A stretch of 63,669 bases of DNA, the filler included, from Basidiobolus ranarum (lineage: Eukaryota), in the NCBI GenBank assembly GCA_040143965.1. It is 22 parts of 22 records of this genome, joined end to end, with 100 filler letters (N's around TTAATTAATTAA, not from the genome) between each part and the next. Parts side by side here need not be neighbours in the genome. Positions count along the whole stretch, not along the records: positions 17,448 to 20,251 come from JASJQH010002967.1; 21 more parts are not named here. One strand, 5' to 3'. The notes beneath the pieces are model-generated. The model saw nothing but the letters and a program-made list of their open reading frames with translations. It was not told where the DNA came from and ran no database searches. The translations under genes were made by a program, and so were the position numbers. Of this stretch, positions 1 to 45,653 are shown one piece after another (position 1 is the first letter of the stretch; the number at the start of each line of letters is the position of its first letter).

Positions 1-1165
1 TTGTTGCTGTTATTATGCTCAAATAATGCAAAAACCCATGAGCACATTGAAAGGGGCCCTTTGTTCCAAGGTTAATATACTCTGGAGTCTCCCAACCCAT
101 TGCATTACATCCATCACTGATTTTGCTGATACATTGTTAATCAGACTGGTATATGGTAATACTGGTGATTTCACATGCAGCATCATTTCACCACAGGTAT
201 GCTCCATGGGTAACTCCCAGAATGTATAGCAAGGGCCTATAAATTCTAAGCATTGTGAAAGATGTAGCAGGGTATGTATTAACTACCAGTATAGATTCAG
301 TGTATCTTCTTTAAACCTGTAATACAGTTGTTCATATCAAATTACAAAATCTTTGCACAGTTGCTATATCTGCCTGAGATCTGCCAACATGAGTTGAAGC
401 CATAGGAAAATACTAACAATATCTTCAAACAACTACTAATGTTGCTAATACTTATCAGGCCAAAATCTTTATAAGATTCCCCTTGAATATATAAAAATCC
501 AATACTTCCAGTCTTAGCATTTAAATAAATGCCTCGAGGTGTGAATATTGATGGGAGTCATGGTAAAATTTGATGGTATCATGACATTTTGAAGCATTTT
601 CCCAATTGATTCAAACTTTGATCTTATCTTCAATGGCTCATTCATATTGACTTTTCCACTATATAGCTGAGTGGGTAGTATTTGAATATTATTGAATAGT
701 AAGTGCATAGTGCCTGAGAGGAAGCTCTGGCTCCAGCTGATCCCCTTTAGAATTATAATCTTAGGCTTATAGCATATACCAAGTTTGATGCTTGACTGAC
801 TATTAAGCAAATTGATATCAGTGATCATGTTGAAATCTGACTAGGCTCTTGATGGTAAAATCATGGAGTTTAGTGTTGTATTTGCATAGTAGTAATACAT
901 ATGCCTGATAGAGTAGACTTCATTGATTTGACAAAACCTACAGTAAGATAGTGCATTGAGCCCACAAAAACCTCCAAGTTTATTGATGGCAGGAGTGTCG
1001 CCAACACATAAAATGATCTTAGCTTTGATAAAATATTCACCCATCTGAACCCCATTAGATAACCATTCAAATTCCACAATCAAAGGCTCCAAGAAGCTAT
1101 CTATAAGCCCTGGTGATTTAGGTCCAGATATGATGGATACTATCAAAATAATATGAATCTTATAC
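1..1165 (-). mobile_element. Degenerate CACTA/EnSpm-type transposase (Tnp2/Transposase_21 plus DUF4218-like region)
   Basis: Broken ORFs with IISGPKSPGLIDSFLEPLIVEFEWLSNG...GDTPA and WELPMEHTCG motifs. Paralogous copies lie at 26157-28467, 51015-52122 and 55500-57484. Confidence 0.85.
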
Positions 1166-1174
1166 CATTCAGAA

Positions 1175-2811
1175 GCTAATATCATTGTATGTATTGGTGA
1201 CACTCCTGCCATCAGTAAACTTGTAGGTTTTTGCAGGCACAATGCACTATCTTGCTGTAAATTTTGCCAAATCAATGCAGTCTACTCTATCAGGCATATG
1301 CACTACTGCTATCCAAATACAAAACTAAACTCCATGATTTTACTGTCAAGAGCCCAGTCAGATTTTGGCATGAACACTGATATCAATTCATCAAATAGTT
1401 AGGCCAACATCAAACTTGGTGTTAGCAGTGAACCTAAGTTCATATTGCTAATTCAACTACCTTCATGTCCAAATGGTTGTTTGGCTTTCACCAGTGATCT
1501 GAAAAGCCTGCAGCCATATACTGTTTGCATATAATTGGCAATCATTGAATCTGGTGAATATCAATATTATTTGGCTCACATACAGTTGATTCCCCATCTT
1601 AAAGTTTTGATGGAATCACCCAAGTCTAGATCATTGATCCAATACCAAAGTACTCACCACACAGGCACAATGTACTATCTTGCTGTAGATTTTATCAAAT
1701 CAATGGAGTCTACTCTATCAGGCCTATGCATCACTAGTATCCAAATACAAAACTAAGCTCCATGATTTTACCATCAAGAGCCTGGCCAGATTTCAACATG
1801 ATCACTGATATCCATTCACCAAATAGTGTGTCCAATATCAAACTTGGTATTAGCCATAAGCCTAAGATTGTATAGCTAAAGGAGATCAGCTGGAGCCAGA
1901 GCTTCCCATTAGGCATTATGCACTTACTATTCAACACCTTTCAATACTACTTACTAAGCTTTATGGTGGGAAATTCAATATGAATGAGCCATTCAAGACA
2001 AGATCAAAGTTTTAATCAATTAAGAAAATGCTTGAAAACATCAAGATACCATTGTATTTTAGCAGGACTCTCATCAATATCCACCCATCTAGGCATTTAT
2101 TCAAATGCAAAGACTGGAAGTATTGGATTTGTATATATATTCAAGTGGAATTTTGAAAAAATTCCTGCCTGATAAGTATTGGCAACATTGGGAGTTGTTT
2201 GTCAATATTGTTAATATGTTCTTATGGCATCAACTTGCATTGGCATATCTCAGGCAGATACAGCAACTGTGCAAAGATTTTGTAATTGGATATGAAAAAC
2301 TTTATTATCAGTTTAAAGAAGATAGACTGAATCTATGCCAGTATTCAATATATTTGCTGTTGCATCTTTCACAATGCTTAGATACTATAGGCCCTTCTTA
2401 TACATTCTGGGAGTTCCCAATGGAATGCACCTGCAGTGAAATGATGCTCTGTGTGAAATCATCAGTATTACCATATGCTAATCTGATCAACAATGTATCT
2501 GCAAAATCATTGATGGATATAATGGAATGTGTCAAGGAGACTCCAGAGTATATTAACCTTCCAACAGAGGGTTCTTTTCAATGTGCTCACAGGTTTTTGC
2601 ATTGTTTGAGCACAATAACAGCAACAAAGCCCAATCCATGGACACAGAGTAAGTACCTCAATAATTCAGACTAACTTGTTTGTGTAATGATCAAATGGTA
2701 TTTCTAGGAAAGCTGCAAGACAGACTTCTTGGTAAGATAGCTTGAGAGATGCAGTATCATTGTTTTAGCTGTGTAGTAATCTATCCAAGCAATGACACAT
2801 CTACTTGCCCT
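1175..2811 (+). mobile_element. Degenerate CACTA/EnSpm-type transposase, second copy in opposite orientation
   Basis: CPNGCLAFT motif near 1465. ORF 2105-2674 has WQHWELFV...LLLHLSQCLDTIGPSYTFWEFPME (DUF4218-like). Frameshifts and stops throughout. Confidence 0.85.
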
Positions 2812-2911
2812 NNNNNNNNNNNNNNNNNNNNNNNNNNNNNNNNNNNNNNNNNNNNTTAATTAATTAANNNNNNNNNNNNNNNNNNNNNNNNNNNNNNNNN
2901 NNNNNNNNNNN
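2812..2911. other. Artificial contig linker N44-TTAATTAATTAA-N44 (first of 21 such linkers)
   Basis: The same 100-bp spacer, with stops in all six frames, recurs about every 2.9 kb (2812, 5722, 8630, 11537, 14443, 17348, 20252, 23155, 26057, 28958, 31858, 34756, 37653, 40550, 43445, 46339, 49232, 52123, 55013, 57900, 60786). The intervening contig lengths never increase along the window. Confidence 0.99.
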
Positions 2912-3031
2912 TGGATTCGTATTGCTCAAGGGATCTCTGGTAGAACTCAGCGTCAATGTAGAACTCGGTGGGTTCAAGTAAAAGAAAAAGCCGGGTTAGA
3001 TTGCCTTGATGACTTTGAAGATGAAGTTTAA
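2912..3031 (+). CDS. 3' end of a Myb/SANT-domain protein (partial, cut by contig start)
   Basis: Translates WIRIAQGISGRTQRQCRTRWVQVKEKAGLDCLDDFEDEV*, containing the Myb repeat motif W..IA...GRT..QCR.RW. Too short to appear in the ORF track. Confidence 0.85.
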   Translation, partial: WIRIAQGISGRTQRQCRTRWVQVKEKAGLDCLDDFEDEV

Positions 3032-4266
3032 CTTCAGCATTCGTTTACATACGCTTCATGGCCACATCTTACTATGCTTGCAAACACCAATTATTCAATT
3101 GCTTCATTCAAGTTGTTTATTTCACAGTACTAATTTCATTTGTTCGTCTTTTGTATGGTTTAGATTTTCATTTTCACTGCTTTACACATTCACATCTTCC
3201 AATAATTTCCGAGTCTTGCCTTCTTGTCTTACTACAAACTTAATTCCCTAATTTTTTCCTCCTTTATCGTTCTTTTAGTATACAAGCTCCCTTATATATG
3301 TGCTACTTTATTAGTTTAATTTGAATTTTGTCCCTGACCTTGATTCCATTCTATCAATCGGTTTACGTTATGGCGGATTTGTTAGTTCCTGACATACCGA
3401 CATCCTTGAACCACCAGACTTTTTGCTTCTTTGATGATTAATATACCCATTCACTTGTCATTTCACTCATCACCCTGGCGGCTAATTTTTGAAATTAATC
3501 TATATTGTTGAGGCGAGAAGTTCGAGTCTGTGTAGTAGGAAATATTTGAGTTCTCCTTGGAGTAGATCAGAACTCTAATGGTTTGTAATCGGTGCTATGG
3601 CCTTGTCTGGGATTTCATTCGATTTTCTGCCTGAAGGTAAACAACGAGGAGGAGGAAGCCTGTGTAGTTTGTCAGGTGAGTATTCTGAGTGATCGCAAGG
3701 ATCAAATGAGATCCATATATAGCTAGATCAGGTCTCACAGTTCAGGATCTAAATTCTCTTGAAATATTCTGGATTGAACTTGTAATTCATTTCTGAGAAT
3801 CAGTGTTGTTTCAGAGTGTCCCCATGCAGACAATATTCTTGGTGTTTTCGATGTGGTGACGTTGGTATTTCAATGCTAGGGTTGTAATGGATGTGTGTGT
3901 AAACAAAGATTCGAGATCCATTGGTGATGGGGAATGGTCAGAACAAGTCTGGTTGAAATCTATATACTTAGCTATCTTCATTATTGATGGACATGGAACT
4001 GACATACATTAATTCTTAAGTCACATTATTCGAATTGGACTTATCCCTGAGGAAATTATCTTTCTGTTTGAGTATGACTTAGTAATCAATCTCTGTAGAG
4101 GCCTATTCTTTATATTAAAATCCTTGAGGTATATATTGTTTTTTGATGATGTACCTGTTGAAACTAACATAGCCCAAGACATCTATATATTCATATATAG
4201 CTTAGTATTAGTTATTCCATATTTCACCAAGATATCACCTCCTATTTTCAATTCAACTGAACTTGT

Positions 4267-5548: not shown

Positions 5549-5721
5549 TGTTAAAGTATTTGGGAGCCTGTTGGAAGTGGTTTGGAGAATTAGAGGAATT
5601 GGTGGCTTTCACTGTTAAAGTATTTGGGAGCCTGTTGGAAGTGGTTTGGAGAATTAGAGGAATTGGTGGTTTTCACTTATTGATTTATTGAGTAGAAAGT
5701 TGACATTTATAGTTTTGTCAA
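5549..5721 (-). repeat. Partial LTR family A with an internal 64-bp tandem duplication
   Basis: Reverse complement of the 4338-4684 LTR end. The unit TGTTAAAGTATTTGGGAGCC...TTTCAC occurs at 5549 and 5613. Confidence 0.8.
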
Positions 5722-5888
5722 NNNNNNNNNNNNNNNNNNNNNNNNNNNNNNNNNNNNNNNNNNNNTTAATTAATTAANNNNNNNNNNNNNNNNNNNNNNN
5801 NNNNNNNNNNNNNNNNNNNNNATCCCATGATAATTGGTGACAGAAATTCTGATCATCACAAAACGATTTCCATGCAGTGAGGAGCACT

Positions 5889-6008
5889 CTTTGACTGTGA
5901 ATATTTATCTGCATCAATCTGAGTCGAGCTTTGACTGTGAATATTTATCTGCATCAATCTGAATCGAGCTTTGACTGTGAATAGTTATCTGCATCAATCT
6001 GAATCGAA
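5889..6008. repeat. 40-bp tandem repeat, 3 copies
   Basis: CTTTGACTGTGAATATTTATCTGCATCAATCTGA(A/G)TCGAG repeated three times head to tail with no spacers. Confidence 0.95.
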
Positions 6009-6224
6009 CTCCTAATTATCTTTTCCCCTATTCTTTGACCGCTTTTTTGGAGTGGTCAGTGTGCCAGGTCACCAACACTCCACACTCGCTCACACCTATA
6101 CCTACACCCCACACCTACACCCCACACACCTCACTGCAACCAGGATTCACTCCACAAAAAAGTCACCTATAAAGAGGAGCCATCGGTCCCAACTTATTCT
6201 CATCCACACACAGATCATTTCACT

Positions 6225-6509
6225 ATGACAGTTATCAAGACAAAAATGACCAAGATTATTCGTCAATTAGAGTTTTCCGAAACATCCACACTCATCAATT
6301 ACATGGTGAACAAATTACGCAAGTCATGTGACTCCGCATCCATTGACTCCAACGAGGATCTCATTCCTACCTTGAACATCGACGAGGCCATTGCATCCAT
6401 CAAGAAGGCCGAGAATTTCGAAGAGATACTTAGAAATGGATTTCTTCTTCACGATGAAATACGTACACAAACCTTGCGCTTGACTCTCACACCAAGACTC
6501 CTCCGCTGA
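6225..6509 (+). CDS. Small hypothetical protein (94 aa)
   Basis: Clean ATG-to-TGA ORF in CpG-retaining sequence, with TATAAA about 55 bp upstream. C-terminus is FEEILRNG...TLRLTLTPRLLR. Confidence 0.7.
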   Translation: MTVIKTKMTKIIRQLEFSETSTLINYMVNKLRKSCDSASIDSNEDLIPTLNIDEAIASIKKAENFEEILRNGFLLHDEIRTQTLRLTLTPRLLR

Positions 6510-7789
6510 AGCCTAAACCATTAAACCTTGTAAATACTGTACTTGTATCTTAATTACACGAGGGATGTATCTTTAAAATACCACTATTCCTAAAGACATT
6601 GTAAAAACTTTTCATAACCTCCCCCTTCCATCCATACCCCACTTCACCTATTAAACAGCTAATTAAATACCAGTAAGAACCGGTTCTTTTACCTAACCTG
6701 TATATACGTTAATGCCTGATGATTAAATTGCTCTTTATCACATATATATCCTTTACTCAATTATCTAAATTACGCCAGTTTTTAAATGATTGATTTTCAA
6801 TCACTAGAAGAAATACTGGTACAAACCCATAGACTTGGCAATTATGCAGGCACAACAGCTTGAGATCGTAATCTACATTCTTTAAACTTGCGCCTAACAT
6901 TTTTGGAATGTAAATTTGGCGCAATGGTTTAATGATAACTGGAAAATTGCCACTCCCATGCTTACTCCTAATCTGTTAGCCAATACATATTAGGGACATT
7001 ATTACCTCCCAGTGTTACAAGTACTTCGAAAACTTCGAATGGTCCACTTATCATACCAACAGTGCTTTAATATGTATTGAAATGATTCCAACAAATGGGA
7101 TAAGTGTATACATTCTACAGGAATATGGAGAGTTTAGTTGTCATTCAAGCAGCTTTAAGCGGAATGTTGAATATGTGATCCTGCAAAATAGTGGCAAGGG
7201 CCACAGTAACTAGTCATATTCGATGTAGGAATTATTAATTCCTAGGCAATAGTCCCTTGGAAGTGGTGAGTATTATAGTAATGATTGGCTGGTTATTCAG
7301 ATATGCACACAATTATCAGAATTAGCATTCTTTTGATATCATATTTATCAGTTTCATATTACTCCAACGGTTGCCATGTAAAGTTGCGTGAAGAGAACAC
7401 TTTTAATAGGCAAATCATTGTACTGTCTATTCAGGTATTTTATCCAATCGCCAAAGACTGACCTTTTTACATGTGTAATGCTGAATCACATCCAATGAAT
7501 GGTTACCAGTCTGGTTTTGCTGGCGGATCATAACTACAAATCTTGATTACTTTGTAGTGGAGTGGAGGTAATATTATTGCTCTTTCATACTTTATAGTTA
7601 ATATTTTGAAGAAAACTCCATCAGGAATCTGCCATGATAAAGTTCACACCTGATCAAGTGCTCTATACTACTCACATAGGTATATTGCATTTTATATGGC
7701 TGAATGAATAATGATAGGAACAACCAACATACTAAAGATACTGAATTTCAGCTGCTCCTTCACCTACTTGATCCTTAACTACAAACTCC

Positions 7790-9378: not shown

Positions 9379-10500
9379 TGTTGTCACTTTAAATTATAGC
9401 AAGTAGTTAGCTTTATTTACTCTAATTGTTTAGTACACATATGCTCATAGCTCTCATCAATTTATACATCAACTGAAGCACTTTTAATGTTTTTCATAAT
9501 TCTCTTAAGACTTCTCTGTCACCACAAATCTTCACCTGTACTTTGCAGATATGTTTATTGTACTCTATACATATTAAATAGTCCTATTCCACAGCAGGCT
9601 CTTGAAAGGACATATTTAATATAATAAAATTGTTTGTCCTAGTGTTGTATATAAATCTTTTCCAAAACACTTCCAAATCCCCTCAATATTTCTGTCACAC
9701 TCTCTGCCAGCAGGTTATGAGCACTGTTAATCACTCACAAGAAATGCTCACTAGTGTAAGTAACTTGAGCTGCATTATTAGTGAAGAGTTTCTGCTCTGG
9801 AGAACAAGAATGCAGATGCTGCTGTCAGAGAGAGGCCTTTAAAAAATTATTTTTGGTGTGGAAGTTCAACTGCATGGCTCAAAGCCACAAGAGCAAGCTG
9901 ACTCTAAGAGAAAGCAGGAGAATGTGCTTTTGGCTACTATGCTGATTCTAGATAATGCTTGACTAGCTCTTGTAGCCAATGTAAAGTCACCTTTTCAGGG
10001 CTGGGCAACCATGAAGACCCTTAATCAAACTAAAGTAACTGCCAACCATTTGTATCTACTAAGACAGCTGTATGGCTCACAAAGAAGGCCAACTCCAATA
10101 CAATACCAGAGCATATCAACAAACTTTAAGCCCTTATCCTGAAGCTGGCTGCAAATGAATGTATTGTTGCAAGAATTGAGCTTACCAGTTTATTATTCAA
10201 TTATCTACTACCAAGAAACTCTGTTATGATAGCAATTCAGAAGAATGTTTATTAAGTGTTGCTAACTGAATCCTATGCTACTTCTAAGTTATTTCATCAA
10301 GGGAAAACTGTTGGAAGGTTGGATTAAATATCAGAAGGAGAGTGTCTTCTGTGCAAATAAACACTCTATTAATGCAAAGAACTTTGACAAGAAGACCAAA
10401 CCTAGATGTCACTGCCATCATAAGCATACAAAGATGAAGTACCAATTTCATAATATCAAACGGAACTTGGGACTTTGTGAAATTGCCTGCTAGGCAAAAA
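9379..10500 (+). mobile_element. Ty1/copia relic (LTR family E): LTR, PBS, degenerate gag
   Basis: TG...CA LTR at 9379-9712, PBS GGTTATGAGC at 9713, gag-like FLLWRTRMQMLLSERGL and a zinc-knuckle remnant (CHCHHK..H). Confidence 0.7.
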
Positions 10501-10539
10501 GCTGTTGGATTCATTGGGGCTGCAAGATTAAGAGAAGTG

Positions 10540-11445
10540 CAAACCCTAACAATAACTAAATATTTTGGTCTGGAATGGATCCACCCTTCTGCATCACAAA
10601 GCCTCCAGAGCACCATCACAATATTGGTGGCTTGCATTCAGCCAGACATTTTGATGGTGTGACAGCAGCTTCTTGATGATATATCAATGATATTCATATA
10701 TGTTAAATATTGTTCCTCATAGTTGGCATGCATAATATAACTTGTGACCAGTTTTGCAAAAATCTGATTTTTGAATGGCAAATTGCTGGCTTTACTGCTG
10801 TAGGAATTCAAATCAAGATGTATGCCTTTATTTAGATATTGTAGGCTTTGTATTCCAGCCATAATGAGAATCCAACAAATACAAGAATGTTGTAATGTTT
10901 AGACTCTACACATTCACATACATGACTAATCAGACATAACTCAACAACATATTCATGACTTGCAGTCAACAAATGTCCTGCCACAAGTGAAAGTGACATT
11001 GTTTTAATAAATTACTCCATGGCTAAAACAATAATATAGTGTATCTTAATCTATCTCACCAAGAAGTCTATCTTGCAGCTTTTCTAGATATACTGTCAGA
11101 TTAACACACAAACTTATTAATCCAAATTATAGAGATACTTACTCTATGTCCATGGATTAGATTTTGCTCCTGTTTTTGTGCTTAAACAATGCAAAAACTT
11201 GTGAGCACATTGAAAAGAGCCATTTGTTTGAAGGTTAATATAATCAGGAGTCTGTTTAACCCATTGCATTACTTCCATGAAAGATTTTGTTGATACAATG
11301 TTAATTTGATTACCATCTTGAATAATGTGAATTTCACATGGAGTCTCATTTCACAGCAGATGTGCTCAGCGGGAGCTCCCAGAATGTATAGCAAGGGCCT
11401 GAAATCTCTAAGCATTGTGAGAGATGCAGCTGGGAATGTATTGAA
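10540..11445 (-). mobile_element. CACTA-type element 3' region (degenerate)
   Basis: Homologous to 26190-27250, 39720-40417, 5320-5548 and 1-290. Confidence 0.75.
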
Positions 11446-11536
11446 CCCTAACAGAAATTTGAGGATTGTTATCGTAGGAAAACCATCACAATTTTAATCC
11501 ATTTGGGATTGACCGTTTGCTTACCGTCATAAAATC
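11446..11536 (+). mobile_element. Terminus of a DNA-transposon-like element beginning CCCTAACAGAAA
   Basis: The same sequence begins at exactly the same base at 11446, 28608 and 40418, each time with an unrelated left flank. Confidence 0.7.
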
Positions 11537-13083
11537 NNNNNNNNNNNNNNNNNNNNNNNNNNNNNNNNNNNNNNNNNNNNTTAATTAATTAANNNNNNNN
11601 NNNNNNNNNNNNNNNNNNNNNNNNNNNNNNNNNNNNTATATGTTTGCCTGCTAGGAGTACATGATTTGGATATGGTTCTAATCCCTGAAGATTTCAGGGT
11701 CTTAATTTTTCTGTATTTTCGGTGTAAAGATAGGTACTGTAAGCACTGGTGACTTGTTTAGCAATAGTAAATTGTTTATAACCACCTAAGGGAGTTTACT
11801 CGGCTCTTTCACCTGTACCTGAAGCATCAAGTGACACCCAGGAAACATATTAACTCTGTTCTAAATATTGTTTGATAATAACAGTCCAATGATCCGCACA
11901 TGCAGTAAACCCAACGTTTACGAGTTTGATGGGATTTCACCCCTAAGCAACTTCGATTATGCTCCCCTGAGGAAATATTTAACTCTGAAAGGCTCCTGTT
12001 CTCAAGTATTTTGCAGGGTCTGGGAGGATCTTACAAGTTAGATAGTCCAAATATCAAGGCTAGTTCTATATACTACTTGGGCGAGTATGTACTTGTACGT
12101 TGATAAAACTCACTTGTCTGAAAAGCCTCTCAGACAAACACTTCAACTAAAAGGCAAATATTGATAAAATTGGTATTATTTATATCAACCAGTGACTTGG
12201 AAACTCCAACTCAATACATAATCTTCAAAGGTGAATGTTAGGATGTGCTTTATGGAGGCAGATATTTCGAGAAACAAATAGCCTTTGTCTAATGTTATTG
12301 ACAATCAGCTTCATTGCGATATGATAGGCCTTTTTAAATGTTTGCTTAGCTAGTTAACGACACGTTGTCACGAGACTTGAAGTAAACCTAAATTTATTAC
12401 GTCGACCAAAGTCTGACAACTTGTAGACGTGAACGGAAGAATAATGTCAGCTCTTGGGTGGTTGATTACGGCAAACCAATAAGCATGCTGGAGTGTACGA
12501 TGAGCGTATGGCTTGCCAAGCGCCGTCTCGGTGTGATGATGATTTCATATGAGAACTGAGTTTAAATTGCTAGGCTACCTAGAGTGTACGTGCATATATG
12601 ACGTATGCCATAGCATCGTAGTGCTAGAGAACACTGCATGTCAGCTATTCTTAGCTATCTGATTAGAGCCGCATGATGATGACTGGAAGTGGCATGACCA
12701 GGCACTAATCCAATTGATTGACGCATGCCCAGTTATCAGAGCAATAGCTAAGATCGGCGAATTTGGAGATCATTGTGGAATGGTTTTGTGGTTGCATCAA
12801 GTAGCAGGCCTATCGCGGGCAACGATCGAGCATTCCATAAATCCTCCGTCTTGTTTGCTACATCACTGACCTTACTTCTTCAAACGGTTTGCTAAATAGG
12901 GGTTCAGTAAGAATTATTCGATTCTCTTAGATCCTGACAGTAGTGTACAGTCAGTCACAGCTAGTGAATATGTGATCTCCGCTTTATTTTAACTATTCAA
13001 AAGAGTGAAACTGCTTCAATATCTCTCACCAATTATCGCTATATTCAAAACCCTTGGTGCATGTCGAAGTCGCTATTCTGTTC

Positions 13084-17447: not shown

Positions 17448-18206
17448 GCTAAGTGATATTTGACTAAATAATGTTGACTAACTAATATGTGATATATGAA
17501 ATAGTTAGGTGTATAAAGATAGTGATAACAAATATGATAAAGACAATAAACTTCAACAGAGCCAACTGAAGTAACAATAAAGCATTGACATACTTACCAG
17601 AAGTGTTTTACAATCCCCCCAATTACATAGTAAGCCAGTGGTGGAGCAATGTTTAACAGAAACATTGTCAAGGATATCAACTTCCAAAATGCCTACTTTG
17701 AGAGCTATTGAACATCCCTCTGTAGACAATTTAATTAGAGTTCTTATAACAAGGGAATCTCAGGCAGAACACCATAATGAGCTGTATGAAATCACAAATA
17801 AAAGCTACAATGTTGCTTTAAAGGCCATGACAAGCAATAATGCTACAAAATTACAATTTAAGCAGTGATCTGAAGCAACTAGTCCTCAGTAAGAGAGTCA
17901 CTCAACAATGATACAAGACCTTCAGAATGCTGTACTTGAGTTACAGCAGCATGCTGCTCTGTCCATCCATTTTTCTATCCAATTTCAATCAAACCCAAAC
18001 CATATATATGATTATCACCTTGACAAACTGGCAGAGCAGAATATGTGTTAGACCCTAAAGCCTACACAACAACCCAAAATTACCTGGGCATATGAAAGTA
18101 GAAATATTGTAGGAAAACCAGCAAACCAAAAGACTTTGAATATCAGAGTTGCTGTCACTTGCTCTGATTATGAATGGTTTAACATTTTGGAAACTCTGCA
18201 GAATGT
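17448..18206. mobile_element. LTR family D end (17448-17558, minus) followed by a CACTA-associated ORF relic (17559-18206, plus)
   Basis: 17448-17558 is the reverse complement of the LTR start at 62352 and 28468. 17630-18204 aligns by eye to 49410-49981. Confidence 0.75.
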
Positions 18207-20065
18207 TAGTTTGACTTTGCAGCCATTCTATTTTTACATGCCATAAATTTTCAGCTTTTGTGAAACTTTTATTATTATTGTTTGATATTGTTGGCCTACA
18301 ATAATTATATTTTATGCTAGTTTTGTAGTGAGATTTAATAACATTGAATTTGGCTACAAAAGCTTCTAAATGATTAAATAAAATTTGTATGATGCCAAAT
18401 GTTCTAAACTTGTGATATACATATGTTTAATAAGTTTATTACCTTCTTTGTCTAATAATAATATTGAGTTGCTTATATTATTTAAGCTATTTGATGTTAT
18501 TTTGATTACTAATTTTTCTGATTTAAAAATAATATTATCATCACTAAATCTTACTTTTAATAATAGTTTAAGTTTATTAGCATTATTATTATTTGCAATG
18601 AGAAAATAACTGAGTTTTTAAGAATACTTGACACTAACTACAGACTTTTCAGAAATATATGATGATAAAGTATTAGCTATATTATTTAAAGTATTAAGAT
18701 GTTGCTTTTTTAATGTATAAATATCATCCATTTCAGGATAAACACCAATTTTAAAGATTGACATGTTTAGATCACCTGATATATTTTCAATAACAAATAT
18801 TTCATGTATATTTTGTAAATACTTGTTGAGTAAATCTAAATAAATGTTAGACAAAATAATACTATTAATAGAAAAATCGTCAGGAGAAAGTTTTTCTTGA
18901 ATATAATTACAAAGAGATATAATATATCTATAAGAATTTTCAAGTTTGAGTAATTTGTTAGGAGTAAGAATTTCTGATAGTAAAAGTCTATGAAGTTTTT
19001 TTATATCTGAAATATTTTTGAGAATATTTTCTAAAAGTTCTGATGAATCTTGAAAACAAATACAAAATTCATTGTTTGACCATATCTAAGTTCAAGTAAA
19101 GTAATGTCAGTAATAGGAGATAATAAATGTGTTTTTAATAATCTTTTTCCAAGAATAGTTGAGCAATGGTCTATAACATCTAATAAGCAAGTAGTTTTAA
19201 TTTTTTTATTATATATTAGTTGAGATCAAACAATATTTAAATTATCTATGGTATTGGGAGCCAATAATAGATGATCAGAAGGAACAAATATGTAGGGAGG
19301 TGAGAGTTTTTCAAGAAGCATTGGATTATGTTTCTTATGGTATTGGATTGTTGTTGCCAAAGAATTGACATCAATCAAATGGTGAATAATATCATCAAAA
19401 TATATTTTGTGCAAAGAAATAGAATTTAACATTTTTATGATATCCATATTTTTTTTGGTTGCTGATAGAACTATTTCTCAAGGATTATGTTGCTTTATAA
19501 ATGAGATTGTATTATCAAAAGATAAATTTTTATCATCTAATGTAGGATAACTTTCATAAACAAAATTTTTTCTGGTAAGAACATCAATAGCACTAATACC
19601 AAATATGCATAAATTATTGGATTTAGTAGGTTCAACAAAGATAAGAACTGAATAATTTCATGAAATTAAGATTTCATCAATATCTAAATATGTAGATGGA
19701 CTGATAGCACTAGAAACAGAACGTGTAATATTTGGAACAGTACCAGTTTGATCAATAATGACAATAATGTAACTATTTTTGAGTAAGATAGAAACATACT
19801 TATAAAGTACAGAGCAAGGAGATCCAACTAATAATGGATTAGAATGATTATTTTGGGGAATTTTTTTATTTTCTTTAGTAAAAATAATATTAAGAAGAAT
19901 GGACATTTTGGCAGGATTACTGATTTTTTCAATATAGTTATCAACACCATGGATCTCATCAAAACTACCTACCTGCATAAGAACAACAACATTATCACCA
20001 TATTGAGAATTATACAAATTTAAGTAGCAAAAGTATTTGGTAACAAAAGAATTGTGAATACTCAT
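18207..20065 (-). pseudogene. mutS: MutS-family pseudogene (domains I-IV, ATPase domain missing) resembling giant-virus MutS7
   Basis: Stitched translation: VVVLMQVGSFDEIHG...LLNIIFTKENK...KYVSILLKNSYIIVIIDQ...RSVSSAISPSTY; GISAIDVLTRKNFVYESY...FIKQHNP*EI; HNPMLLEKL...NTIDNLNI; CLLDVIDHCSTILGKRLLKTHLLSPITD...RY; LKNISDIKKLHR; KYNYCRPTI...SF..AENLWHVKIE. Intronless, extremely AT-rich, with in-frame stops and frameshifts. Confidence 0.85.
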
Positions 20066-20351
20066 GATAAAGTAATAAAAGCAATAGTATGAATATATAG
20101 TAAAATAAAAAAACTTCAATATAGAATGGATTGCAAAAAAGATATAAGAAGAATTTTAAAAAAGTAATAAAAAAAATATATTAGATGCAAAAAAATATTA
20201 AATTATTATTTTATTCAATTAAGTCTGAAATAAAGTATAAGATAGATATATNNNNNNNNNNNNNNNNNNNNNNNNNNNNNNNNNNNNNNNNNNNNTTAAT
20301 TAATTAANNNNNNNNNNNNNNNNNNNNNNNNNNNNNNNNNNNNNNNNNNNN

Positions 20352-20549
20352 GGCAGAAAGAGAACCGATGAGACACCCCAGTGTAAGACTACTGGTGATG
20401 AACCCTTCCAAGGCGGGTTTGTCGGCGTAACCGAAGCGGTCCTTGAAGCGGTCCATGACCAATACACCACTGATCACACCGGTGTCATAACCAAAGAGGA
20501 AACCACCAATGGCGGCGGCAGCAGATGCGACATATACTAATACACCCAT
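20352..20549 (-). CDS. MFS sugar porter (hexose transporter family), N-terminus, partial
   Basis: AAIGGFLFGYDTGVISGVL signature. TATATAAAAA lies about 55 bp upstream on the minus strand. Confidence 0.92.
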
Positions 20550-22763
20550 GATTGAGATTTAGCTTGAAGACTTATTGCTTAGCTGTGATCCCCTCCACCC
20601 TTTTTATATAAAAACATTATTAGAGGCTTTTGGGACCTGGACAATAGAACATTCAGCCGTCTTAAGAGTCTTCTAGATCAGCAACGCAGGTAGTGGGTAT
20701 GGAACACTTAATTCTATGAACAAGAATCACCCAATTCGACCCACAACTATGGCACCACTGAACTTCATTGGTCATCAGGATCCAAAGAATTTCCCAACAA
20801 CAACCCGCAATTTCATTTGACGGAAATAGAAGATTTTGACCCAAATCGAACTTTATCTCGGAGCCTAGCCCAACAGTCCTTTAAACAATAACTTAAGATG
20901 TATCAATATTGACCCTAGAGTTATAGATATGGCTGTCAGTAAAGAATGTTGCCAATCTGTCTCGGGAGAATATTTAGAATGTGAGTTATTGTGTAAGAAT
21001 ACTGTTAATAGTGACTATGGAATATGTTGTATGCAGGCTACTTCTCACAATCGGGGATTTATTGGTATATAGAGTAATTTCACCATGGTAGAAGGACCCC
21101 TAGCTCATACTGACCATCAGAAGATGAGGATGATGCTATGATTGTCCAATTAGCCAGAATAGATGATCTGAACGACTTCCAACCTTTTTCTATTACTGAT
21201 TTTGAGGATACACCTAGTGCTATGTTCGTTAATCACGTGAACCTATGATTCCCCGCACTTTCTAAATTAAGCAGGTCATGTCTATGAATGTTTCGAATCA
21301 ACTCTATAATGATCCAATATTGGTCGATAGATGTTCTACGTACAAGAAGGCGCCGCACATGTATATTAGAACACATAAGTAGCAACTCTTGGAGTTTGAA
21401 GGTGCGCACACAATTGGACTTTTTCATATGGTTTCATTAGTACTCGAACTGGCATAGACAAGTTATGACTGGTTACACTTAAAGACGTCTTTAGAAGAAA
21501 CGTGTCACAACCCTGAGGAATAGCAATGTATGGTTCTTGGTTACAGAACATTCCACAATTCCTAGCTCTCTTTTCCTGGATCAACTCTGGTAAATTAAAA
21601 TGAAACATCCCAATGGTCACTATTACTATTTCAGCAAAATGATGCTACGCGACGAGTAATCCAGGTATCTAAGTACAAATAGCTGATTGGGTTTCAGTTA
21701 ATGTCCGACATCTCTTGGTAGTGTGTGGATAAAATCAACATTAAAGGACTTAGGTTGTGTGTGGATGTCAATTCTGGGTTATGTTTGATAATAGCAATTA
21801 TAATCCCTTAACTGTTTATAATGCCTTAACTGTTCGGAATTTGTTTCAATATGGTAAAAAACCAAACCATTTTGTATCTGGTTTATCGTACCAAGAATAT
21901 TATCGCTTATTCTTCTGCTGACTAAGAATGAGCTAACTAGAAAGAATGAAATCACAGTATCTGAGTGAAGTTCATAGAACGATTCAGGGTCAAAGATCCT
22001 AAATTCCGCACACGGTAGTTACAGGCACTAGTTTATTTCCTGTGTCATAATCTAAGTACATTTCGTTGTAAGTGATTTCGAATGGACAGCTAAGTGTGAG
22101 AAACAGCTGTCCCACATTAAAAGGAATATTGATCGAGATCCTTTGCTTTATTGAGTTAAGCTGCTTACGGTATGAAGTCGGAGAATTTTCCACCGTCTTG
22201 CTTCATATCTTGGGAATATACAGTCATTGCTTAGTTGTAAAAGGACCGCGTGAAAAATAAATATTTGGAAATTCCTGGTACATTTTGGAGGTGTTTTGCT
22301 TTTCCAAAATAGGTTCGTTTCTTATCATTCGCCATATTATTCGCGGTGTTTCTGCATCATCAGATGAGCCACAAAAAAGATATCATAAATGGTCAACGTT
22401 ATTGTACAAATTTATTTCAATAAAAACCACTTTATCTTATCTGCTAGTTATGGAAGTCTCCGGAGCAGGTGACAGAAAAAACAAGTGGGCAGATATTTCG
22501 TTATTTCCATGGGGTTAACGTGTTCTCCATCCACTTGAAAGTTCCCCTTCAAACATGTTGTTTTAGCGTCACCTGTTGCTAAGCATTCATTGAGATCATC
22601 AACATACGTTTCACACAAAATGTATTCGGAACAGGTATAGAGTTAAGAAATATTAAGCTATATTGATAAATACAATTTATTTAGCAGTGAATATCTACAT
22701 TTGAAGATTCCTAATATCTAGTAATGATATTAAGAAAAACGTGTCTACGTATACTGTGCTCTT

Positions 22764-23154
22764 TAGCAGTGGCGGTAAGCTGGGCGTTGTTACCTTCGTA
22801 TCCAGCTGAGTTGAAGATCGTTGGAGCATAGTACATGATAGCATTGATACCGGTGAGTTGTTGGAACACTTGGATAGCTATTCCGATGAATACACGACGA
22901 CGAAGACCCGATTGGAAAAGTTCAGTCCAAGAGGGAGTAGCCATTTCCTTTTCCATATGAATGGTTTGATTGATGTCCTCCAACTTTGCATCAGCATTCT
23001 TGCATAGCTTTTGTAGCACTTGCAATGCCTGTTCCGAGTGACCTTGGGACATGAGCCAACGTGGGGATTTAGGTAATAAGAACATGAGAAGGGAAAGGAT
23101 GAGGGCTGGGATGCCTTGAACACCAAGTGGGATTCTCCAACTGGCATCGCTATC
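22764..23154 (-). pseudogene. Truncated MFS sugar porter fragment (TM6-TM7 region)
   Basis: SWRIPLGVQGIPA...LPKSPRWL...FQQLTGINAIMYYAPTIF. Homology stops after QLTATA and runs into unrelated AT-rich sequence. The canonical PESPRW reads PKSPRW. Confidence 0.7.
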
Positions 23155-41214: not shown

Positions 41215-43444
41215 ACAAGCTTGAAAAAATCAATATATCGGGGAACTTCTAAGTTGATGTCAGTATTCTAAGTAAATTCCAATGGAGAATAATGGAAAAT
41301 ATCTTAGTGAAATATAAGATAACTAAGTACTAAGCTATATATTACTATATAGGTGTTTAGGCAATGCTAATTTCAACAATGCCAACAGTTACTAAAAGAT
41401 TATTTGTTAAAGTATTTTGGGAGCCTGTTGGAAGTGGTTTGGATATTGAGAGATATTGGTGGTGTTCTCTGATTGATTTACTGAGTAGAAAGTTAACATT
41501 TACACTTTTGTCAAGACATAAGCAAAGTAACATGTAGAATGTGTTAAAGAAGGTTCTAGAAACATGTGTGCAAAGTTTGGGGCTTATAGCTCAAGTTTGA
41601 AGAATCTATATATCTGAGAACTTTTATTTTATTAAAGATATTGTAAGTAAATGCCAATTGAGAACAAAGGGTAATATCTCAGGAGAATATAAGATAACTA
41701 AGTACTAGGCTACATATGAATACATAGGTGTTTTGGCAATGCCAATTTCAATAATTACTATATCAATAAGTCTCACAATTAGGCCTATATCTGCACAGCT
41801 CAAGTACATGAGCCACAGATGTTAAAAGAGGCCCTGAATAGCCCTCACACAAAAGTTTGGAGATCTGCAACAGCTGATGAGTACTAGGCTCTGATTGATA
41901 ATCAAATGTGGATTCTAACCAAACTACCTGGTGACAGAAAATCAACTAGCTGCTGATAGGCTACCCCTAAGTTAAGTACAGCTCTGATGGCAATATAGAA
42001 AGGTACAAATCCAGAGTAGTAGCCAATGGCTATTCCCAAACACCAGGAATAGATGGTACAGAAACTTTTGCTCCTATAGCAAAGTTTAATTCACTTAGAT
42101 TGATTTTAGCAATTTCAGCTATATATTGGCTTATTATACACAAAATGGATATTAAAACTGCTTTTTTGAATAGTAATCCTGCTGAGGAGATCTATATGGA
42201 CCAGCCAGATAGTTTTGTGGATCCAGAAAATCCTAAAAATGCTTGTAAACTCCAAAAAACACTCTATAGCTTAAAACAATCTCCCAGAGCTTGGAATAGC
42301 ACGATAGATGCTATTTTGGAAACACACAAATTCCAAAAGAGTAATGCTGACTGTAGTATCTACTCCAGGCCAGATAAGACAAACCTTGTTTTATTAGCCT
42401 CATATGTAGATGATCTTATTTTAGCAACCAATGACTTAAAGACTTTGGAGAGAACCAAATCCCACTTATCTGCCTAATTTAAATGACCAATCTTGATGAA
42501 CTGTTATACTATTATGTAATCCATATTAAGGTACCTTGACAAAAAATTTTTATTTGCATTTCATACTACTTTCTGAGGGTTTTAAAATGGGTCTTTACTG
42601 ATATTGCAACAATTTTCTTATGGTTTCTCTACTAGTCTTTTTTTCCTCCCATTTTCTCATGGTATTCCTACCCCTATATTTGTGTTTTCTCTGGTTTTCC
42701 TCCAGTATTCATTCCAATATTTTTCATAGGGGTAGTGTTGGAGGATCTTGACATAATGAGGGTTGACTCTGTATATGAGAGGCAACTTATGATATTGTTT
42801 TGATTACTTTATTCTTAAAGGAATATGGAGGCTTATATTGTAGAGAAGTAAATAAATTGTTTGAGATATGCAGGAGTTGATTTAGGAAGATCAATAGATA
42901 AGTGGGGGTAATAAGATACACTTGTTATATAGATATATAGATTTACTATTTAGAATATAGGTGCTATAGATATATTGGTTTTTGTTTCTAATATATGTAT
43001 CATAACTGAAGTTAACTAAAATGTTGCAAAAAGATTAATTATCCAACAGATAGATTGAGCTACCAAAACAATAACTTTAAACCACTCTAATCATAACATG
43101 ACTAAAAATAGCTCAAATCAGACATTCTTGGACTCAAATGAAAGCCAGAAAACTCCTTATCAATGATCATTATACAAGATACACTCGGGTCTACTTTATG
43201 GAAAGAAAAGAACAAGCTCTCTCTTTCTTTAGAGATTTTAAAACACTTGTGGAGACTGAAACTGGAACTAAAATCAAGAAAATGTGTACTGTTAATGGTG
43301 GAGAATATACTTCAACACTATTTAAGCACTTTCGCAAAGTTCATGGAATTAAGCAAGAAACAACTGCTCCCTATTCACCTCAACAAAATGGAGTTGCTGA
43401 AAGAGCTAACAGGACTATAATAGAAATGGCAAGATCTATGATAA
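41215..43444. mobile_element. Nested retroelement debris: two family A LTRs (minus), copia RT (41790-42530, plus), family C LTR (from 42736), copia integrase (43150-43444, plus)
   Basis: RT motifs HKMDIKTAFLN, LYSLKQSPRAW and YVDDL. Integrase motifs NGGEY and APYSPQQNGVAERANRT. Confidence 0.88.
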
Positions 43445-43544
43445 NNNNNNNNNNNNNNNNNNNNNNNNNNNNNNNNNNNNNNNNNNNNTTAATTAATTAA
43501 NNNNNNNNNNNNNNNNNNNNNNNNNNNNNNNNNNNNNNNNNNNN

Positions 43545-44642: not shown

Positions 44643-45653
44643 CTAGTTAAATATTTTTAACACGGATTCATAAACCAAAAAGTTGATTGAATGGATCGGG
44701 AATGCACGAACAAGTGTTGGTACCATACCAGAATAGAGTCCACGAATACCTGATTGTGCAATTACTTTACGGAAGCAATCCATTCCATTAACATACTGTC
44801 TTTGACTCATAAAGGCCTCTTTTTGAATACGGGATTTGACAAGATCCACTGGAAATCCAACAAACCAGGACATGGTTCCACTACATCCACCGGCAAACAT
44901 ATATACCAACGGCGATCCAGAAAACCCTAATTGGTTGGTAGAGAGGTACTTGAAGCCCTCATAAAATCCGAAATAGAAACCCATGCCAACACCATCTCTA
45001 AGTAGTTGTAGGGAGGCACCACGATACAATGCACTGACTCCATAATCTCTTACGATTCTTCTAGCACAACCCACTGTTGTCTCATGAGCAAGATTATTTG
45101 TAGCTAGCCCAGAAGAAATGGCAATGACTCGTTGAAGCTGCATCTGAACTTTGACTAGCTCTAAAGGAATACAAGGGATACTACTAATGGTACCGCCAAG
45201 TACACCAGCAACAAATATAACTGGTAAAGTGGACAGAAAATGCTTTGAGGAGTATTCTTCAAAAGTAATTTTTTGTTGAAGCCTGTGTTCTTCTGGCAAG
45301 ATATATAGTCTGTTAACCAAATTCCGCTTTGCTGTATCATATACAGTAAAGGTGAGCGCTTTAAGACAGGTTGTACTTATCAATGGACTGATAATTCCCC
45401 TATAAAAAGCACCCATCCCCTCTTCTTGGAACATCACCTTAGCACATACGTTCATTGATGGGAAATCTGAAGTTTGCATACGTGTTTTCAAGCAATCAAA
45501 TGGATATCCAACGAAAGTTCCAAGGATTCCTGAAGCACCTGCTGCGACAGTAGTTTTGTATGGTCGTACTGCTGAGATTATTGGGTTGTCATATTGATAT
45601 TCTTTTTTATCAGTTAGTTTAGTAGTGGGAAGCGAAACCTGACGTTGGGCCAT
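44643..45653 (-). CDS. Mitochondrial carrier (SLC25) protein, carnitine/basic amino acid carrier-like, complete and intronless
   Basis: Three PX[DE]XXK[TVS] motifs (PFDCLKTR, PLELVKVQ, PVDLVKSR). Likely ATG at 45653 (MAQRQV). Confidence 0.93.
   Translation of the reverse strand: MAQRQVSLPTTKLTDKKEYQYDNPIISAVRPYKTTVAAGASGILGTFVGYPFDCLKTRMQTSDFPSMNVCAKVMFQEEGMGAFYRGIISPLISTTCLKALTFTVYDTAKRNLVNRLYILPEEHRLQQKITFEEYSSKHFLSTLPVIFVAGVLGGTISSIPCIPLELVKVQMQLQRVIAISSGLATNNLAHETTVGCARRIVRDYGVSALYRGASLQLLRDGVGMGFYFGFYEGFKYLSTNQLGFSGSPLVYMFAGGCSGTMSWFVGFPVDLVKSRIQKEAFMSQRQYVNGMDCFRKVIAQSGIRGLYSGMVPTLVRAFPIHSINFLVYESVLKIFN

Follow-up and report, generated by a model that had tools for sequence, protein, structure and literature searches.

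Introduction

MutS proteins of the MutS7 kind are known from nucleocytoviruses, Epsilonproteobacteria and octocoral mitochondria (accessible portions of PMC3166940, PMC8438181 and PMC11275761). The HNH-bearing MutS7 of giant viruses was described by Ogata et al. 2011 (as cited in the portions seen of PMC3166940 and PMC8438181), and MutS1 and MSH1 are described there as being without an HNH domain (PMC3166940). In this work we analyzed a 63,669-nucleotide (63.7-kb) stretch of DNA, referred to as the window, for which a sequence-only reading had proposed an endogenised giant-virus MutS7 gene in a fungal-type genome at positions 18207-20065. We hold with good confidence that a Basidiobolus-like nuclear genome here contains a pseudogene of the HNH-bearing MutS7 kind, which is truncated and CpG-decayed and most likely derives from a giant virus.

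Giant-virus fossils in Basidiobolus and the transfer of MutS7 into a eukaryote, the octocorals, are already known. Endogenous elements of nucleocytoplasmic large DNA viruses were reported by Gong et al. 2020 from 15 fungal genomes, including those of B. meristosporus and B. heterosporus (PMC7017919). These elements were found by means of PolB; they carry genes for D5, a D6/D11-type helicase, a methyltransferase and RNA-polymerase subunits, and some of them contain stop codons and frameshifts (PMC7017919). The main text of that article, as far as it is accessible, contains no occurrence of MutS. The present locus adds to the known Basidiobolus fossils a MutS7 in a fungal genus; a published report of a MutS7 in a fungus was not found in the accessible portions of the literature on MutS7 in fungi and on Basidiobolus. 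Recent work on giant viruses of zoosporic fungi (PMC13533422 and PMC12247965) reportedly contains no occurrence of 'MutS' and did not turn up in connection with Basidiobolus.

A truncated MutS7-type pseudogene

The MutS7-type pseudogene occupies positions 18208-20065 on the minus strand and corresponds to residues 5-602 of a 921-residue homologue from B. meristosporus (ORX78500.1, P0001 in our alignments), as judged by tblastn, Pfam, protein search and trees. It begins with an ATG at 20065, and the homology reaches position 18214 (tblastn). With this best homologue, residues 5-409 were aligned to 20050-19049, residues 422-546 to 18716-18384 and residues 548-602 to 18381-18214, and the three pieces lie in three different frames. 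In a database of 5.8 billion proteins ORX78500.1 was the best match with E = 3.8e-89 and 45% identity, which excludes a chance similarity. The interval 18207-20065 proposed from the sequence is exact at both ends, with the ATG on one side and the limit of homology and a repeat edge at 18207 on the other.

Pfam models were run on a translation of 19034-20065 with read-through of TGA (a part of 344 amino acids). MutS domain I (19682-19996, minus strand) was detected with 23.7 bits (MutS_I, cut-off 20.6, residues 24-128), and the start of MutS domain III with the motif CSTxLGKRLL (19082-19255, minus strand) with 40.5 bits (MutS_III, cut-off 34.1, residues 271-328); domain III runs on in another frame to about 18384 according to tblastn. 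The model MutS_II reached 18.8 bits, below its cut-off of 25, and no MutS_IV match was found in the window pieces, the corresponding stretch of which still aligns to the homologues. The mismatch-binding Phe-x-Glu is retained as F35 and E37 (GSFDE), and both columns are invariant in alignment A1. The broken frames can indeed be stitched into MutS domains as first proposed, and the motifs quoted for this purpose (MQVGSF.E, GISAIDV, CST.LGKRLL, YNYCRP and L[R>W]H..IE[R>W]) are located on conserved columns. MutS domain V, the ATPase, is absent from every frame of contig 7, which carries the relic, and of the whole window, the homology stopping at residue 602 of 921, and the C-terminal HNH domain is absent from the relic, lost together with the 3' end.

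With fungal MSH1 and bacterial MutS1 the relic has in common the MutS domains I and III and the Phe-x-Glu motif, but the scores of the MutS1 models were far below cut-off: the NCBIfam models NF003810 and TIGR01070 gave 68.9 bits (cut-off 480) and 47.8 bits (cut-off 641.7), values that were taken on the 344-residue part and fall short partly because of its length. A MutS1 from an archaeal metagenome-assembled genome (MAG) has an identity of only 21% and the longest branch in the tree (see below). As the match to proteins combining MutS with HNH is far better, the relic is not assigned to MutS1 or MSH1, and a grouping with either of them was not seen, the archaeal MutS1 standing as outgroup.

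The contig that carries the relic

The window consists of 22 contigs sorted by decreasing size from 2811 down to 2784 bp, separated by 21 spacers of the form N...TTAATTAATTAA...N (for example 2812-2911 and 5722-5821; 0.06 expected by chance). Because the contigs are joined only by these spacers, neighbourhood arguments across any spacer are void, and contig 7 of 22 (17448-20251, 2804 bp) is the sole DNA that is physically linked to the relic. Its guanine-plus-cytosine (GC) content of 0.267 makes it an outlier, the remaining contigs ranging from 0.335 to 0.423. The relic itself has a GC content of 0.244 compared with 0.364 for the other 21 contigs pooled, in agreement with the AT-rich segment that had been noticed, and an AT-rich upstream stretch (20066-20251, minus strand) with a GC content of 0.151 extends from the ATG to the end of the contig.

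On the truncated side the relic is bordered by a dispersed repeat (17641-18207, plus strand), which shares 78% identity with contig 18 (49419-49984) along 568 bp (blastn). In the alignment the similarity to contig 18 ends at 18207, the same point at which the MutS homology ends from the opposite side; this coincidence suggests that the 3' third of the gene may have been removed at 18207 by a repeat insertion or rearrangement. A second dispersed repeat (17450-17559, minus strand) is 87% identical to contig 22 (62352-62460) and 85% to contig 10 (28467-28576; blastn), so that the flank of the relic consists of repeats common to three other contigs of the window. No Pfam families were found in the open reading frames (ORFs) of the flanking repeat 17641-18207, and no unique host gene is present on contig 7 (17448-20251).

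The nature of the host genome is indicated by contig 16, where an intronless ORF (44646-45653, minus strand) encodes a mitochondrial carrier of 336 amino acids with 83% identity to a B. meristosporus protein; the next matches were a B. meristosporus paralogue (57%) and proteins of Mucorales, Kickxellales and chytrids (at most 38%). Judged by the identity of this carrier the host genome appears to be Basidiobolus-like, which makes the earlier designation as fungal-type more specific. The relic can be regarded as nuclear-type because of its flanking repeats and because its nonsense mutations are those of the standard code.

Lesions of the reading frame

The reading frame of the relic contains four stop codons, all on the minus strand. 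A TGA at 19658-19660 (column with D 42, E 7 and R 1 of 52 homologues) stands opposite an R of the Basidiobolus sister protein. A second TGA at 19478-19480 (R 43, K 7 and T 1 of 52; R in the sister protein) is read as CGA>TGA, and a third at 19226-19228 falls on a variable column (S 19, G 16 and D 8 of 52). The fourth stop codon, a TAA at 18618-18620, replaces a residue that is Q in 27 of the 52 homologues and fits a change CAA>TAA. Two TGG (Trp) codons at 18241-18243 and 18223-18225 (minus strand) are found in columns with Arg in 52 and 40 of 52 homologues, respectively (LRH>LWH and IER>IEW), and are read as CGG>TGG. The simplest reading of the stops and the Trp codons would be C-to-T change, that is CGA>TGA, CGG>TGG and CAA>TAA.

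Frameshift 1 (19049-19075, minus strand) lies within a T-rich run and frameshift 2 (18381-18395, minus strand) within an A/T run. They are not introns, because the homology crosses from frame to frame without a gap; the gene is intronless as originally described. Furthermore, about 40 codons are deleted near 19340-19430, and all sequence beyond the LRHPxIER motif, comprising the ATPase domain V and the HNH domain, is lost. In 52 close homologues 193 columns show a conservation of 80% or more; the window copy retains 123 of these and deviates at 70. It is a pseudogene without present function.

Loss of CpG dinucleotides

The relic contains 2 CpG dinucleotides compared with 26.9 expected (Poisson P = 8e-10), with GpC normal at 30, and its flank contains none compared with 23.4 expected. 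The 22 contigs fall into groups in this respect. The ratio of observed to expected CpG is at most 0.15 in 13 contigs of the repeat or transposon type (including those with Tnp2-transposase relics, and some with 1-6 CpG per 2.8 kb), intermediate in 3 (0.28-0.37) and 0.56-0.72 in 6 gene-bearing contigs, among them those that encode the carrier, the HAM1-like and zf-MYND proteins and the sugar-transporter-like ORFs. This bimodal distribution suggests a strong, repeat-targeted CpG decay in the Basidiobolus-like genome. The MutS7 genes of three viral loci show ratios of 1.08, 0.70 and 0.93 at a GC content of 0.28-0.34.

From these values the relic appears to have undergone the same CpG-clearing process as the repeats of the genome, and a depletion of the host type suggests that it has long resided in the host DNA. 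The presumable cause is methylation of cytosine with subsequent deamination. The AT-richness of the relic would in part be the result of this host-side decay and not of viral composition alone. The clear host-side mutational signature, a loss of CpG that generates stop codons, is new.

Relatives on giant-virus contigs

The protein search returned 110 matches, all of which contain MutS_I, MutS_III and MutS_V except P0104, which is without MutS_I; a precomputed Pfam HNH match is present in 15 of the 110. Besides ORX78500.1, the matches are 109 proteins of 794-1272 amino acids from metagenome and other assemblies. The Cys, His and Asn columns of the HNH motif are nearly invariant in 14 aligned homologues (A1), P0001 included, and the Pfam HNH model scored above cut-off in L001 and P0002 and below cut-off or not at all in P0003 and P0001. 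An exhaustive representative search gave 1860 relatives at E <= 0.001. In these searches the named proteins are all from Basidiobolus.

Members of the family were located on contigs of the IMG/VR database with sizes of 51.7 kb (L001) and 333 and 357 kb (L002 and L003), and L004 is a giant-virus metagenome-assembled genome (GVMAG). On L001 the gene for MutS with HNH (774-3524, plus strand) is accompanied by an adjoining SNF2/ResIII helicase (5553-6881, minus strand) and a 610-residue Rpb1 fragment (9849-11678, minus strand), and L002 encodes helicases, an EF-Tu-type GTPase and a YqaJ-type recombinase. Eight MutS7 relatives and eight relatives of the helicase were found on contigs of equal size (68265, 66491, 28856, 88996, 33439, 54734, 137086 and 24741 bp); judged by size alone, this suggests that MutS7 and a helicase of the L001 type share a contig in at least eight metagenome assemblies.

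In the ESM Atlas ORX78500.1 is closest to clusters with a viral label of 83-100% (Nucleocytoviricota), followed by a Campylobacterota cluster; at least eight of the Nucleocytoviricota-labelled clusters have scores of 0.97-0.99, and the Campylobacterota cluster has 0.95. This range of neighbours equals the published range of MutS7 and argues for a viral affinity of the relic family. A motif scan of 185,579 prokaryotic species genomes (one each) yielded one relative among 54 candidate stretches, namely the archaeal MutS1 with 21% identity; the patterns used are specific to the close family, and a distant bacterial MutS7 would escape them. Matches of viral affinity are accordingly present in the IMG/VR contigs, in the GVMAG and in the Nucleocytoviricota clusters of the Atlas.

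Basidiobolus copies

The best full-length relative, ORX78500.1 of B. meristosporus (921 amino acids), is apparently whole. It contains MutS_I, III, IV and V above the Pfam cut-offs (MutS_V with 134 bits) and a conserved HNH motif. From B. ranarum a MutS7 N-terminal fragment of 416 amino acids is available (KAK9759806.1, P0278), which is encoded on a contig of 2716 bp and was the best match of the representative search. This fragment is 77% identical to ORX78500.1 over 393 residues and 46% identical to the window copy, and brings the Basidiobolus records of the gene to three.

Two peculiarities of the ORX78500.1 gene model were observed. About 100 residues of domain III (A1 columns ~420-500) are missing compared with the relatives, residues that the window relic still has, and a repetitive insert of the TNKKLTSD type is present at A1 columns ~150-185. 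Either a stretch was spliced out by the model, or the copy itself is altered.

The genus Basidiobolus carries at least two MutS7 lineages, one decayed and one well preserved, which is new. Since the window copy branches off before the split between B. meristosporus and B. ranarum, it is an old paralogue or else the decayed orthologue of a species further removed. The preserved copies raise the testable question of whether a viral repair enzyme was domesticated by a fungus, and the copy preserved in two Basidiobolus species may be such a domesticated enzyme.

We tentatively put forward, as a possible but doubtful extension, that Basidiobolus took up a giant-virus MutS7 before its species diverged and keeps one copy in use, the window copy being a discarded sister copy. 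This idea is based on the identity of 77% between the preserved copies, which is near the 83% of the housekeeping carrier, on the lower identity (46%) and the 2.6 times longer branch of the window copy, and on the Walker-type and HNH columns retained in ORX78500.1. Should this prove correct, Basidiobolus would be the first fungus to use a MutS7 and, after the octocorals, the second eukaryotic cell lineage to do so, and the enzyme would provide a self-contained mismatch repair with its own HNH nickase, as in octocoral mitochondria.

Phylogenetic position and direction of transfer

Three trees were calculated, one with FastTree (115 rows) and two with IQ-TREE under LG+C20 with posterior mean site frequencies (PMSF) in 'quick' mode (38 and 26 rows). 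The 38 and 26 rows were hand-picked from the 115 to span the clades, with exclusion of very long rows such as P0105-P0110, P0076 and P0097, and a single sequence, the archaeal MutS1 with the longest branch of the tree, served as outgroup. In all three trees the window copy groups with the Basidiobolus proteins at a support of 99. The 26-row tree shows the topology (window,(B. meristosporus, B. ranarum)) with values of 99 and 99 in the Shimodaira-Hasegawa-like approximate likelihood ratio test (SH-aLRT). The Basidiobolus clade is sister to a clade containing L001 with a joint support of 100, and L002 and L004 are located further out, again in all three trees. The end branch of the window copy (0.90) is longer than that of the other Basidiobolus lineage (0.34), which is what a pseudogene should show.

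A transfer from virus to fungus is the most likely direction. It is based on the distribution of the gene and not on the root of the tree, because the gene occurs in many divergent lineages on virus-type contigs, compared with one fungal genus among the named proteins. Several observations weigh against this interpretation and against the viral derivation in general. When the 22 non-Basidiobolus MutS7 rows were held together, the alternative topology was not rejected by the approximately unbiased (AU) test (difference in log-likelihood 2.84, p-AU 0.366); this alternative tree roots on the Basidiobolus stem, with a single very long MutS1 as outgroup, and the direction is to this extent unproven. 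The trees are made up without named references of MutS7 (mimivirus, octocoral, Campylobacterota), MutS8 or MSH. Most of the relatives are metagenome proteins, the viral nature of which is inferred. When 38 ORFs of L001, L002 and L004 were compared with the 22 contigs of the window, none but MutS7 gave a match. For the L001 helicase, the best 120 of 2384 relatives include no Basidiobolus name and no contig of 33,329 bp like that of P0001; no link to a larger viral island was obtained in this way, which is weak evidence in either direction. Both frameshifts, finally, are located in A/T runs and could be assembly errors, an explanation that cannot account for the four stop codons and the truncation. 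The proposed giant-virus relic is upheld with regard to its viral affinity, which is supported by the IMG/VR contigs, the Atlas clusters and the sister clade with L001, and its nesting within viral sequences hinges on the position of the root, which the AU test leaves undecided.

Comparison with known systems and origin of the relic

The relic resembles the MutS7 of giant viruses in its surviving domain order I-(II-like)-III-(IV), and its nearest full-length relatives have domain V and a C-terminal HNH motif; relatives are encoded on giant-virus contigs. In contrast to these genes, the window copy is dead, is without domain V and HNH and lies within fungal repeat DNA. The mitochondrial MutS of octocorals is likewise a MutS7-type gene resident in a eukaryote and is ascribed to a transfer from a giant virus or an epsilonproteobacterium, but it is mitochondrial, intact and transcribed, whereas the relic is decayed and of the nuclear type (for the octocorals, accessible portions of PMC3166940 and PMC8438181). 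The 'fundsalphaviruses' elements of fungi occur in the same genus and contain virus-type genes with premature stops and frameshifts, sometimes beside transposons; they differ in that they represent a PolB-screened gene set in which MutS goes unmentioned in the main text, so far as that text is accessible (PMC7017919).

The sequence of events that best explains these data is as follows. An HNH-bearing MutS of the MutS7 kind would have passed into the nuclear DNA of the Basidiobolus lineage, with a giant virus as the most likely donor, as suggested by the relatives identified on Nucleocytoviricota contigs. The ancestral protein would have had the properties published for MutS7, with recognition of mismatches by the Phe-x-Glu motif of domain I, hydrolysis of ATP by domain V and nicking of the DNA by the HNH domain, which is referred to as 'self-contained' repair. 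The window copy then lost its function; it lies in repeat-type DNA that is nearly cleared of CpG. C-to-T decay at CpG, as expected from cytosine methylation, would have lowered the GC content and made TGA stops and Trp codons out of codons for Arg; the two single-base frameshifts, the TAA and the deletion of about 40 codons would have followed, and the ATPase and HNH domains would have been removed by the repeat insertion or rearrangement at 18207. Under this scenario the relic could serve as a marker for dating the contact between viruses and fungi in the Zoopagomycota.

The alternative that fares best is that the gene is old in the fungal or eukaryotic lineage, and that giant viruses took it from their hosts or both inherited it. 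The root on the Basidiobolus stem that the AU test leaves standing (p 0.366) and the well-kept copy common to two Basidiobolus species (77% identity) are in line with this idea. We nevertheless consider it unlikely, as Basidiobolus stands alone among the named proteins, the gene is found in dozens of divergent lineages on virus-type contigs, and surveys of eukaryotic MutS assign MSH1-6 and MutS1-like genes to the fungi and MutS7 to other groups (accessible portions of PMC11275761 and PMC8438181). The sequence-only reading had likewise placed MutS7 in large DNA viruses, Campylobacterota and octocoral mitochondria and outside the standard fungal set, which agrees with the available portions of these publications and of PMC3166940.

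A bacterial gene, for example a MutS7 of Campylobacterota, that was pseudogenised after transfer is quite unlikely. MutS7 is known in Epsilonproteobacteria (PMC3166940, accessible portions), and a Campylobacterota cluster with a score of 0.95 is among the Atlas neighbours, but the scores of the at least eight Nucleocytoviricota-labelled clusters are higher (0.97-0.99), the family-specific peptide scan of the prokaryotes yielded only a MutS1 with 21% identity in 1 of 54 stretches, and the sister clade of the Basidiobolus proteins includes an IMG/VR contig with an RNA-polymerase gene.

It also weighs on the preferred derivation that the relic is known from a contig of only 2.8 kb with an outlying GC content (0.267 versus 0.335-0.423), which would suit a contaminant or an assembly chimera in which the MutS piece is foreign to the fungal chromosome. 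We regard this as very unlikely: the flank consists of repeats common to three other contigs of the same assembly, the MutS part shows the CpG depletion typical of the repeats of this genome and not of the viral homologues, the nearest relatives are in two other Basidiobolus genomes, and a gene broken to this extent is not to be expected in a replicating contaminant.

A live gene using genetic code 4 (TGA=Trp), in a mitochondrion, a mitochondrial plasmid or a Mollicutes-type endosymbiont, is scarcely credible and was rejected: the first 374 codons are very AT-rich, contain three in-frame TGA and no TAA or TAG and form one open frame under table 4, but at none of the TGA columns (D42/E7/R1, R43/K7/T1 and S19/G16/D8 of 52) does W belong to the three most frequent residues, R occupies two of these three positions in the two nearest proteins, the two TGG codons at Arg columns show the same C>T pattern, the TAA, the two frameshifts, the deletion within the gene and the missing domain V and HNH persist under any code, and the motif scan of 185,579 prokaryotic species genomes detected no close relative.

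Other features of the window

Several of the other contigs contain recognizable coding sequences. Decayed Tnp2-type transposase ORFs were detected with the Pfam model Transposase_21 on contig 10 (27936-28517, minus strand, 41.9 bits) and contig 1 (844-1281, minus strand, 30.7 bits), and by eye the two resemble each other. On contig 15 two ORFs (41971-42477 and 43102-43500, both on the plus strand) resemble by eye the portions of a Copia-type retrotransposon that encode reverse transcriptase and integrase. An ORF with a HAM1-like N-terminal domain on contig 5 (13154-14440, plus strand, 163.9 bits) and a zf-MYND ORF on contig 9 (23977-24576, minus strand, 38.5 bits) both look like ordinary host genes. 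At the ends of contig 8 two ORFs (20352-20558 and 22711-23154, both on the minus strand) resemble by eye a sugar transporter of the major facilitator superfamily (MFS), with motifs like GFLFGYDTGVISG and PESPRWL.

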